Source: an uncultured Actinomycetes bacterium
Lineage (GTDB): Bacteria; Actinomycetota; Acidimicrobiia; IMCC26256; DASPTH01
Length of the DNA stretch: 64,000 nucleotides
NCBI GenBank assembly: GCA_963756895.1
Contig: CAVWPI010000010.1
Coordinates: 16,649-80,648, forward strand
Reading direction: 5' to 3'
Positions 14,973-18,064 of the stretch are shown here, one piece after another. Numbering within the stretch: the first letter of the stretch is position 1; the number at the start of each line of letters is the position of its first letter. Below the pieces are notes generated by a model, which did not search any database, was not told where the DNA came from, and was given only the letters and a program-made list of their open reading frames with translations. The position numbers and the translations under genes were made by a program.

Positions 14973-15726
14973 ATGTTGCTGCACCGAAGACAGCGAACGC
15001 GTCCGGCTCCTCACGTTCAACCGGCCCGACCGCGCCAACGCGTTCAACGAGGAGCTGTACCACGCGGCGGCCGACCGCGCTGCGCGCCGCCGCGATCGAC
15101 GACGACGTCGCGGTGGTCGTGTTCACCGGCGCAGGCAAGGCGTTCTGTGCGGGCACCGACCTGCTGGAGATGGCGGCCGACCGTCGACGCCGGCGTCGAC
15201 GGCACTGCGACCTCGCGCGACGGGTTCCCCGCGTTCGTCGACGTGCTGCAGGAGTTCCCCAAGCCGTTGCTGGCAGCGGTGAACGGCGCCGCCGTCGGCC
15301 TCGGCTTCACCATGCTCGCCCACTGCGACATCGTGTTCGTGTCCGACCGCGCGCGACTGCTCGCTCCGTTCACCAACATGGGCGTCGCGCCCGAAGCCGC
15401 CAGCAGCTACCTGCTTCCGCGACGCATGGGTCGGCAGCGGGCGTCGGTGTCACTGTTCACGTCCGACTGGATCTCGGCCGAGGACGCGGTCGCCACCGGC
15501 CTCGCGGTGCAGCAGTGCCGTCCTGAAGTCGCTCGTCGACGAGACGGTGGAGCTGGCGACGCGCATCGCGTCGAAGTCGCTGCCGTCGCTGATGGCGACC
15601 AAGCGCCTGCTGCTCGACGCCGAGCGTGAAGGCATCGCCCGCGCCCGCACGCTCGAGAACGCCGCGTTCGCAGAGCTGCTCGCGCTCCCGAACGCGAAGG
15701 ACGGCGTGCTCGGTCAGCTCGACTGA
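14973..15726 (+). pseudogene. enoyl-CoA hydratase with four +1 frame breaks (about 14985, 15076, 15182, 15519)
   Basis: Removing one C at each site restores a full crotonase: MLLHEDSERVRLLTFNRPDRANAFNEELYHAAADALRAAAIDDDVAVVVFTGAGKAFCAGTDL...PKPLLAAVNGAAVGLGFTML...LMATKRLLL...GQLD*. Confidence 0.8.
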
Positions 15727-16002
15727 TGAGTGCGGGCTACCGGTGGAGCGTGTTCCCGGCGTGAGCGGTTGATCGCGCGGTAGATCAGCAGCGCGATCAC
15801 CGCGCCGATGATGGAGCCGATGATGCCCGGACGCCTGGATGGCGCCTTCATCGAGGTCCTTGCCGAAGAGCACGTAGCCGAGGAAGCCGCCGATGAACGA
15901 GCCGACGATCCCGAGCAGGACCGTCGCCCAGAAGCCCATCGGATCGCGTCCGGGGACGAGCAGCCGCGCCAGGAACCCGGCGATGATGCCGATGACCAAC
16001 AT
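15714..16002 (-). pseudogene. GlsB/YeaQ/YmgE-family small membrane protein with one frame break near 15825
   Basis: MLVIGIIAGFLARLLVPGRDPMGFWATVLLGIVGSFIGGFLGYVLFGKDLDEGAIQASG continues as IIGSIIGAVIALLIYRAINR only in the neighbouring frame. Confidence 0.7.
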
Positions 16003-16104
16003 GCGAGATGAGGAATCCGATCATGCCGCAGGGCGTGCCCGCGGGCGAGCCGCGAAACTGCGGCACGGTTGAACGAGCGCCGCGTTCCGGGCACAACCTG
16101 GCAC

Positions 16105-16385
16105 ATGCCGAACCCCAAGCAGCTGGCATGGCAGGGCGTCGCCATCGCATCGGGCACGCTCGCCGCGGCGGCGGTCCGCCGGGCCGCCGTCACCACGTGG
16201 CGCACCACCAAGCACGAGGACCCGCCGGAGAACCCGGTGGCGCGCGACGTGAGCTGGCCCGACGCGCTCGATGTGGGCGATCGCGGTCGCCATCGGCGCC
16301 GCGGTCGGCGCGCGTCGTCGCGCAACGCGGTGCCGCGGCGGCGTGGGAGCGCGCCACCGGCGATCCGCCGCCGATCGAGACCTAG
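16105..16385 (+). pseudogene. DUF4235-like small protein with two frame breaks (16270, 16313)
   Basis: MPNPKQLAWQGVAIASGTLAAAAVRRAAVTTWRTTKHEDPPENPVARDVSWPDAL / MWAIAVAIGAAVGA / VVAQRGAAAAWERATGDPPPIET* is spread over three frames. Confidence 0.6.
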
Positions 16386-18064
16386 ACCGGTTCCTGCTCC
16401 GCCTCGAGCAGATGCTTCATGACCTTGCCGGTCTGCGTGTAGGGCAGCGCGTCGCGGAACTCCACGTGCGCCGGGCACCTTGAACGTGGCCAGTCCCTCG
16501 GCGACCCACGCCTGCACGTCGGCGGCGTCGAGTGACGCGCCGTCGTGGAGCACGACCACGGCCTTGACCTCCTGGCCGAGCGTGCGGTGCTCCACGCCGA
16601 TCACCGCGGCGTCGGAGATGCCGGGATGCTCGACGAGGCGGTGCTCGATCTCCATCGGGTAGATGTTCTCGCCGCCGCGGATGATGAGGTCCCGCATGCG
16701 GCTCTCGAGCCAGAGCACGCCGTCCTCGATGCGGCCGTAGTCGCCGCTGTGGTACCAGCGCTGGTCGTCGAGCACCTTGGCCGTGGCGTCGGGGTCGTCC
16801 CAGTAGCCCTTGAACACGACGCCGCCGCGCAGGCAGATCTCGCCGACCTCGCCCTCGGGCAGCACGTTGCGCTCCTCGCGATCATCGCGGATCTGCACCT
16901 CGAGCGTCGGGTATGGCGCGCCCACCGACTCGCGATGGGTGAAGTACCGCGCGCCGGACAGGAGCGTGCCCGCGCCCATCGACTCGCTCATCCCGTATCC
17001 GTTCGACAGGTTGGCGGTGGGGATCTTCTCGTTGAGCACCCGCATGAGCTCGGGCGGGAACGGCGCGCCGCCCGACGACACCATCGTCAGGCACGACAGG
17101 TCGAACGACTCGAACTCGGGGTGCTCGAGCATGCGCCAGAACTGCGTGGGCACGCCCGACCACGCCGACACCCGATGGTCGGCGGTCAGGCGCAGGTGCA
17201 CCTCGGGATCCCACCGCCCGGGCGGTGGGAACACGAGCGACGAGCCGAAGCGAGACCCGGTCATGAACAGCGGCGCGGTCCCCGAGATGTGGAAGAACGG
17301 CGTCGCGCAGATCGACGCCGGCGGCGGCGCGTCGGGTGACGGGGGTGGCACGTTGTTCAGGATCATGGTGACCGCGCGCCCGTACGCCATCGCCGAGCCC
17401 ATGTGCACGAGGTTGCGGTGCGTGAGCGTCGCACCCTTCGGCCGGCCGGTGGTGCCCGAGGTGAAGAGGATCATGAACGGGTCGTCCTCGTCGATGGCGA
17501 CGTCGGGCAACGCCGCGCCGCCGTCCTCACCATCGACGTGCAGCATCGGCGTGCCCTGGATGCCCACCTCGGCCAGGCGTGCGAGTCGGGTCTCGTCGCC
17601 GAAGAGCACGGTGGGCGACGTGAGCTCCATGCCGTACGCGAGCTCGCTGCCGGTCCACCAGCCGTTGAGGCCGACGATGATGGCACCGAGGCTGACGACG
17701 GCGAGCTGCGCGAGCGCGTAGTCGAGGCTGTTGGCGCTCGCGAACGCGACCCGGTCGCCCTTGCCGACGCCGTACTCGTCGGCGAGCACTGCCGCGATCG
17801 CACCCGCGCGCGGGCACCTCGCGCGAACGTCACCGTCTCGTCCGGGCCGCCTTGATTCGTGAAGACCAGATACGGACGGTCGCGGAACTGCTCAGCGCTG
17901 GTTCGGAGCACCTCGACCAGACTCCGCGGCCGCTGCACGAAGACCTCGCACGCGGCCCCGAGGACCTGCTCGACGGTGCGCTCGAACGGTGCACCAGGTC
18001 CGGAGAGCGCGGCGCGCTGCTCGGGCGTGAGGCGTTCCTCGTCGGTGTTGCGCAGCGTGCTCAC
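16382..18064 (-). pseudogene. acyl-CoA synthetase (AMP-forming) with frame breaks at about 17800-17828 and 16472
   Basis: GTG 18064 overlaps the upstream stop (GTGA). Core motifs ILFTSGTTGRPKGA, YGMSE and WYHSGDYG are intact. The N-terminal 80 codons and the last 29 codons (AHVEFRDALPYTQTGKVMKHLLEAEQEPV*) lie in other frames. Confidence 0.8.

Follow-up and report, generated by a model that had tools for sequence, protein, structure and literature searches.

A 3.1-kb segment (positions 14973-18064) of the 64,000-nucleotide stretch of DNA analyzed here, referred to as the window, contains four adjacent genes on both strands with interrupted reading frames, flanked by intact genes. This arrangement raises the question of whether the organism is losing the four genes or whether the deposited sequence is wrong. 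Based on comparisons with related sequences, we conclude that the frame breaks almost certainly reflect consensus errors in an error-prone metagenome assembly and not gene decay, and that the organism most likely carries all four genes intact. To characterize the breaks, the segment was aligned to orthologous loci of the same genus and to soil metagenome contigs. Our analysis revealed 14 assembly-private events in 14973-18064: four in the enoyl-CoA hydratase (ECH), three in the GlsB/YeaQ gene, two in the DUF4235 gene (plus two just upstream of it) and three in the acyl-CoA synthetase. The original prediction listed about nine breaks over these four genes; those breaks are present, but the true count is higher, and the single break placed in GlsB/YeaQ at ~ 15825 is replaced by three in the alignments. 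Thirteen of the 14 events are single-base insertions, in agreement with the insertion-type character proposed earlier, and the remaining one is ambiguous (-2 or +1). No clean private 1-nt deletion was found in the hotspot, compared to at least 13 private insertions. Six of the 11 calls made by a frame-switch detector over the entire window fall inside the 3.1 kb, and the local density, predicted to be roughly ten times that of the rest of the window, corresponds to an enrichment of at least 10-fold.

The ECH (crotonase) gene (14973..15726, + strand; alignments A1 and A10) carries single-base insertions at 14981/2, 15075, 15177 and 15529. When these columns are corrected, the translation is stop-free and matches Pfam ECH_1 in one stretch (positions 3-237 of 251; 146.9 bits, above the gathering score). 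On the opposite strand, the gene for a GlsB/YeaQ/YmgE-type small membrane protein (15738..16024, - strand; alignments A3 and A10) has single-base insertions at ~ 15757, 15832 and 16004; its corrected reading terminates in NTLHR*, as in the metagenome orthologues, and belongs to Pfam Transgly_assoc (PF04226; 41.4 bits; cut-off, 25.3). The ECH and GlsB stops seem to overlap by 13 nt only as long as the third GlsB insertion (~ 15757) is overlooked. The GlsB gene is missing from this locus in the same-genus genomes, and its origin as a misassembled insert was considered; this was ruled out because ECH is followed by GlsB in four independent soil metagenome contigs. A transposon or RNA-element origin was also dropped, since an Rfam search gave no element in 13000-20000 and a search for meaningful repeats or mobile-element ends flanking the GlsB gene found none.

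The DUF4235 gene (16105..16385, + strand; alignment A2) has single-base insertions at 16270 and 16306, and its corrected translation covers Pfam DUF4235 completely (positions 1-77 of 77; 55.7 bits, above the gathering score). Two further window-private single-base insertions, at 16082 and 16102, are located in the non-coding stretch upstream, where both columns are gaps in five of five relatives (alignment A2); the insertions are therefore not limited to coding sequence. The acyl-CoA synthetase (AMP-binding) gene (16382..18064, - strand; alignments A4 and A9), whose GTG start overlaps the amidohydrolase stop in the GTGA at 18061-18064, is broken at 16475 (+1), 17823 (+1) and ~ 17805-17812 (-2 or +1). 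The breaks predicted at its N-terminus are present, but what had been read as two insertions may instead be one +1 and one -2 event. The corrected translation is stop-free and contains AMP-binding (2-384 of 384, 242.2 bits) and AMP-binding_C (1-76 of 76, 71.4 bits). The N-terminal breaks coincide with a patch at 17758..17956 that is locally divergent from the closest available relative. Mismatches number 8-12 per 100 nt in the patch, 0-3 per 100 over 1.4 kb of flanking sequence and 1 per 100 farther out. The genes on either side were correctly predicted to be intact: neither the bicupin gene on the left (13971..14966, + strand, with two Cupin_2 stretches; alignment A6) nor the amidohydrolase (18061-18927, - strand, Amidohydro_2) and SDR (18955-19878, - strand, adh_short) genes on the right (alignment A5) contain any window-private indels when compared to four relatives.

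All 14 events are absent from five genomes of the same genus and from five contigs that represent closer relatives in soil metagenomes, in which the genes read through. These contigs, short-read-sized, are the closest independent sequences (~ 90-98% nucleotide identity) and come from strains other than the assembly's own. In the nearest one (L032, ~ 98% identical) the synthetase N-terminal region is uninterrupted (alignment A9), and four others (L033, L034, L036 and L038) provide unbroken ECH matches with 93-96% protein identity and also cover the GlsB region. An exact-protein look-up with the amidohydrolase returned one 1.58-kb contig; look-ups with the bicupin and SDR proteins found no same-strain contigs reaching the hotspot. 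The possibility that the shifts are real and are bypassed by ribosomal frameshifting or transcriptional slippage has one point in its favor, namely that the frames can be joined to full-length proteins. Such programmed recoding would require two to four shifts per gene that are conserved in none of the relatives, their contexts are heterogeneous with few homopolymer runs and no common slippery motif, and the empty Rfam result argues against a recoding element. Because the orthologues lack the shifts, recoding is effectively refuted and hardly conceivable as an explanation.

Recent inactivation of a four-gene cluster for acyl-CoA metabolism by genuine insertion mutations in this strain would account for a deposited sequence that is broken, with breaks limited to four adjacent genes next to intact neighbors, and the comparison sequences all derive from other strains. 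We examined the substitution patterns of the frame-corrected genes. Substitutions at first, second and third codon positions numbered 15/8/66 in ECH, 36/26/150 in the synthetase and 8/4/22 in a further broken gene, in comparison to 13/4/48 in the amidohydrolase, 7/4/70 in the SDR and, against the genome G015, 26/18/90 in the bicupin gene. The broken genes thus keep a third-position-dominated pattern like that of their intact neighbors, with no sign of relaxed selection. No nonsense codons occur in the frame-corrected broken genes, and there is no surplus of private non-synonymous changes (counted over first and second codon positions, private changes came to 20/1526 in the hotspot versus 15/1647 in the flanks). 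Bacterial pseudogenes are commonly reported to have a deletion bias, opposite to the at least 13 insertions with zero deletions seen here. Two insertions fall outside coding sequence, every relative is intact, including the one that is ~ 98% identical, and approximately 2,100 like breaks occur genome-wide, rpoB included. Taken with these observations, real decay of the cluster is very unlikely.

The genome-wide survey placed the hotspot in a broader context. The assembly consists of 16 contigs with 82% marker completeness, and the frame-switch detector reported ~ 2,120 candidates (0.46 per kb), 74% of which are of the +1 type. Calls per 3.1 kb have a mean of 1.43 and a variance of 3.4; six or more calls were detected in 69 of 1,478 non-overlapping 3.1-kb windows (4.7%), and 108 distinct clusters with at least six calls per 3.1 kb exist in the genome. 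On the whole-genome scale the hotspot is unexceptional, being one among more than 100 similar clusters. The essential gene rpoB contains one extra base inside its most conserved motif (...EAYGA.YALQE...). At an independent locus, an AftD-like gene carries 15 private 1-nt insertions and one 2-nt insertion with no deletions, and one chain of 11 frame segments corresponds to a single Pfam GT-C_AftD domain. Private +1 insertions, different in each case, are also present in three few-contig, low-completeness genomes of the same genus (G009, G002 and G001); G015, a genome of 480 contigs, has none in the ~ 9.6 kb compared. It is conceivable that the extra bases are real and that mutation is biased toward insertions in certain patches of the chromosome, for instance through error-prone repair in which a base is duplicated and miscopied; the result would be recent +1 frameshifts lineage-wide, this acyl-CoA metabolism cluster included. 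The cell would then have to survive through a heterogeneous population or widespread frameshift suppression, and we regard this scenario as extremely improbable.

The nature of the inserted bases provides a further clue to their origin. In 22 of 37 events the inserted base equals an allele present in relatives at the adjoining column, in comparison to 18.8% under the null (p = 5e-8), and only 11 of 37 events are of the homopolymer type versus 55% expected. A placement-free test of coding events gave the same picture, with 23 of 28 being doublets of alternative bases where 48% would be expected (p = 2e-4), and one of 28 being a pure homopolymer run (30% expected). Homopolymer-type disagreement, which the original prediction offered as one sign of an artefact, does not describe these insertions, most of which are non-homopolymer doublets of alternative bases. 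The idea that nearly all of them are synonymous third-position doublets was rejected, as the allele-matched columns, tallied from relatives, include eight first, three second and six third positions with three ambiguous. What we claim is that the insertions appear to be alternative-base doublets at variable sites. The match between inserted base and allele suggests that both bases were written in tandem at ambiguous or polymorphic sites, as co-occurring strains were collapsed.

Generic long-read indel noise, in which a local coverage dip or a failed polishing window leaves random insertions without any strain heterogeneity, is consistent with errors that are found throughout the assembly, with between 0 and 44 in each 20 kb, and with a +1 bias shared by clusters and isolated events. 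Run extension should dominate under such noise, in contrast to the scarcity of pure homopolymer runs; the inserted bases match the alleles of relatives far above chance, and the synthetase N-terminal breaks fall exactly inside the locally divergent patch. Noise of this kind alone is an unlikely explanation.

The account that we favor, and hold to be very probable on the strength of the sequence comparisons, joins intact genes with extra bases from a noisy assembly consensus, likely by way of strain collapse. A noisy, probably long-read, metagenome consensus would add extra single bases, and closely related strains may have been merged into one contig. Where the reads are split between two bases at a site, the consensus would write both in tandem, resulting in a gain of one nucleotide. 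On this view, divergence between the merged strains would be higher in the hotspot than in its flanks; the hotspot holds the lineage-specific GlsB gene and a hypervariable synthetase patch. Several observations count against strain collapse. The allele-matched columns are not third-position-dominated, which is less easily reconciled with a simple model in which near-identical strains are separated by synonymous SNPs. The amidohydrolase/SDR flank is error-free despite a difference of ~ 2% from L032, the nearest strain; any collapsed second strain would therefore differ only in patches. In addition, the emission of both alleles is not obviously expected from a standard graph-based consensus.

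For annotation, a pseudogene label is unwarranted for the four genes, and the organism should not be scored as lacking the acyl-CoA pathway. Gene calls, fusions, 'split genes' and the completeness estimate are unreliable until the assembly is frame-corrected or re-polished. The error signature, with tandem alternative bases clustered in variable tracts and not linked to homopolymers, differs from the textbook long-read error and could serve to flag collapsed-strain regions here and in the sister genomes G001, G002 and G009.

Several frame breaks in each of a set of adjacent genes beside intact ones are reminiscent of pseudogene clusters such as those of Mycobacterium leprae. Real decay involves deletions, nonsense mutations and relaxed codon-position patterns and spares essential genes; here, in contrast, deletions, nonsense mutations and a relaxed codon-position pattern are lacking, and essential genes are not spared. 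The events also differ from the classic Nanopore error in homopolymer length, as they are almost exclusively insertions, rarely extend runs (1/28), are strongly clustered and resemble two alternative bases in tandem. With regard to strain merging, the Strainberry paper (PMC8302730) describes how strain-oblivious long-read assemblers place strains near 99% identity (98.65% in one example) in a single consensus, with indels that then produce frameshifts and leave marker genes missing. The hotspot resembles such a collapsed-strain consensus in overlapping a locally divergent, lineage-variable tract; it differs in that a conversion of SNPs into 1-nt insertions is not described in that paper, and the strain mixture proposed here is deduced from relatives. 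In overall pattern, the breaks resemble the frameshift errors that consensus indels leave in metagenome-assembled genomes built from long reads (Sereika et al. 2022, PMC9262707; proovframe preprint, 10.1101/2021.08.23.457338). In such genomes consensus indels are known to cause frameshifts and reduced marker completeness (PMC9262707); correspondingly, in this assembly ORFs are broken genome-wide, in essential genes too, completeness is low (82%) despite contiguity (16 contigs), and the orthologues elsewhere are intact.

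Gene-by-gene alignment of the hotspot (14973–18064, 3.1 kb) with syntenic loci from five same-genus genomes (79–89% nucleotide identity) revealed that four adjacent genes are indeed broken, by 14 events, 12 of them coding, against the approximately nine of the original prediction. The insertion-type character proposed for these events was also confirmed. Private single-base insertions, i.e., present in this assembly and absent from aligned relatives, are located at 14981/2, 15075, 15177 and 15529 in the forward-strand ECH gene. The reverse-strand GlsB/YeaQ gene, for which a single break at about 15825 had been proposed, is broken as claimed, but by three insertions: two at 15832 and 16004 against same-genus relatives, and a third at ~15757, visible once closer relatives were aligned, whose removal gives the C-terminus ...NTLHR* found in those relatives. 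Two insertions (16082 and 16102) lie in the 25 nt 5' of the DUF4235 start codon, two (16270 and 16306) within this forward-strand gene, and two (16475 and 17823) in the reverse-strand acyl-CoA synthetase, which has a second N-terminal event at ~17805–17812, parsed earlier as +1, or as −2 in comparison with the closest relative. When private columns were removed, all four genes were open without a stop, with full-length Pfam matches to ECH_1, Transgly_assoc, DUF4235, and AMP-binding plus AMP-binding_C, respectively. The neighbors expected to be intact, bicupin on the left and amidohydrolase and SDR on the right, contain no private indels in alignment with relatives, and the GTGA overlap coupling synthetase and amidohydrolase is present at 18061–18064. 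DUF4235 and the synthetase are convergent, with stop codons overlapping on the palindrome CTAG (16382–16385). An Rfam search of 13000–20000 gave no match, and no notable repeats or mobile-element ends were found around the GlsB gene.

The genome under study (4.6 Mb, 70% G+C) consists of 16 contigs with a marker completeness of 82%; few contigs combined with low completeness is the look of an indel-ridden long-read metagenome assembly. A codon-usage model was built from its 922 long ORFs, and a seven-state Viterbi frame decoder was run over all contigs, calling same-strand frame switches whose junction is free of stop codons. Six of the 11 calls in the window fall within the 3.1 kb, a density well over 10 times that of the remaining window, consistent with the roughly tenfold excess predicted. 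The five further calls, at ~4055, ~12509, ~34876, ~39556 and ~50263, are of the +1 type in four cases. Over all contigs there were 2,120 calls (0.46 per kb), 1,568 of the +1 and 552 of the +2/−1 type; since decoder false positives should be symmetric, the surplus of ~1,000 +1 calls is a floor for real events. Calls per 3.1 kb were overdispersed (mean 1.43, variance 3.4), with at least six in 69 of 1,478 non-overlapping windows of this size and 108 distinct clusters of at least six. The contig carrying the hotspot is among the cleaner ones (1.4 calls per 10 kb vs 4.6 genome-wide).

Elsewhere in the genome, 11 chained frame segments at C4:705965–708429 (C4 and C5 being contigs of this assembly) make up one Pfam GT-C_AftD domain in a single stretch (profile 4–642 of 661). 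Alignment of this AftD-like arabinofuranosyltransferase gene with four relatives gave 15 private insertions of 1 nt, one of 2 nt, and no deletions. Neighboring glycosyltransferase-like genes at C4:701–710 kb are multiply broken too, in the densest 20-kb bin of the genome (44 calls). The rpoB profile match shifts frame at C5:~26760 (...FGEMEVWALEAYGAS, one surplus base, YALQEILTIKSDD...), within one of the most conserved beta-subunit motifs. The rpoB frame is lost after ...EAYGAS (C5:26740–26770), and the old frame runs on open into rpoC, giving a spurious open frame of 2,562 codons.

The alternative to an artefact would be real gene decay. Bacterial pseudogene decay is commonly reported as deletion-biased. 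The extreme bias found here, at least 28 private insertions vs no private single-base deletions over two loci, argues for an error artefact, as does the breakage of the essential rpoB, and the two non-coding insertions (16082 and 16102) point to a process independent of coding sequence. Nor is selection on the broken genes relaxed: differences from the same-genus genome G015 at codon positions 1/2/3 number 15/8/66 in ECH, 8/4/22 in DUF4235 and 36/26/150 in the synthetase, with 26/18/90, 13/4/48 and 7/4/70 in the intact neighbors. At positions 1 and 2 of relative-invariant sites, private changes number 20/1526 in the hotspot vs 15/1647 in the flanks; by a rough estimate, thirteen neutral indels should be accompanied by around a hundred random substitutions, which were not found in the hotspot. 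Closer relatives are intact, which also argues for an artefact. L032, a 1.58-kb JGI soil contig (~98% identical) found by exact-protein look-up of the amidohydrolase, has a synthetase N-terminus open across 17800–17830. Scanning metagenomes with the corrected ECH sequence gave soil contigs with uninterrupted matches (91–96% protein identity); in alignment, the ECH insertions are absent from five of these (L033–L036 and L038) and the GlsB insertions from four (L033, L034, L036 and L038) at every site covered. The frame breaks are thus very probably artefactual, and the hotspot is not biological, being one of more than 100 places in this assembly where consensus errors are locally concentrated.

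The inserted bases do not represent errors in homopolymer length. Repeatedly, the inserted base and its neighbor stand for the same aligned column, read in two ways, and relatives often carry either: CT[G/C] at ECH codon 3 (L033 CTC; L036 and L038 CTG), [G/T]CG at 15528/9 (relatives GCC or TCG), TC[C/G] at 15832 (L034 TCC; L033 TCG), CC[C/G] at 16475 (G015 CCC; others CCG), [C/G]AG at 17823 (L032 CAG; others GAG), and TC[C/G] in rpoB. Among 37 private single-base insertions from this genome and its same-genus relatives G002 and G009, the inserted base differed from its neighbor and equaled an allele found in relatives at the neighbor's column in 22, vs 18.8% for random insertions matched in base composition (p = 5e-8), while only 11 of 37 equaled a neighbor (55% expected, p = 0.0015). 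In a placement-free test, an event counts as a doublet when either of two distinct one-base deletions restores the peptide to the same extent; this held for 23 of the 28 coding events (null expectation 48%, p = 2e-4), and only one was a pure homopolymer run (vs 30%). Allele-matched columns fall at first (8), second (3) and third (6) codon positions, with 3 ambiguous, so doublets mark variable sites generally and not only synonymous third positions.

The GlsB/YeaQ gene (15738–16024) lies between ECH and DUF4235 here and after ECH in L033, L034, L036 and L038; given this shared order, ECH with a convergent GlsB is a real arrangement in the lineage. In same-genus reference genomes DUF4235 directly follows ECH and GlsB homologues lie elsewhere; G015 (480 contigs) has all genes intact in the order bicupin, ECH, DUF4235, synthetase(−), amidohydrolase(−), SDR(−). 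From gene order, GlsB/YeaQ looks like a lineage-specific insertion. Further left, the bicupin ORF reaches 86 codons upstream (13713–13970) into a weak, below-cut-off PadR/winged-helix match (E = 1e-5), probably a small regulator gene in its own right, fused with the bicupin frame through another break near 13766. A 97-nt direct repeat (14366–14462 and 14858–14954, 70% identity) stems from the pair of cupin domains in bicupin and is an ordinary internal duplication.

A somewhat favored route to the doublets, judged from sequence comparison, is that co-occurring strains were collapsed by the assembler and that, at sites with reads divided between two bases, both would have entered the consensus. 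This fits the presence of the lineage-variable GlsB within the tract. It also fits the mismatches to L032, which rise from 0–3 to 8–12 per 100 nt exactly at 17758–17956, the patch containing the synthetase N-terminal breaks, and then fall to 1 per 100 nt. Furthermore, G009, G002 and G001, same-genus genomes of few contigs and 66–79% completeness, show private +1 insertions of their own, without any deletions, in aligned genes, whereas short-read-like G015 has no private +1 insertions across ~9.6 kb compared, again in keeping with strain collapse; this suggests that the three have the artefact in common with the genome under study, along with the pipeline used for sequencing or assembly. Consensus indels in long-read MAGs are known to cause frameshifts and depressed marker completeness, and strains near 99% identity (98.65% in an example) to be collapsed into one (PMC9262707, PMC8302730). 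The specific doublet signature was not found in either paper; in general terms, both agree with the picture of this genome.
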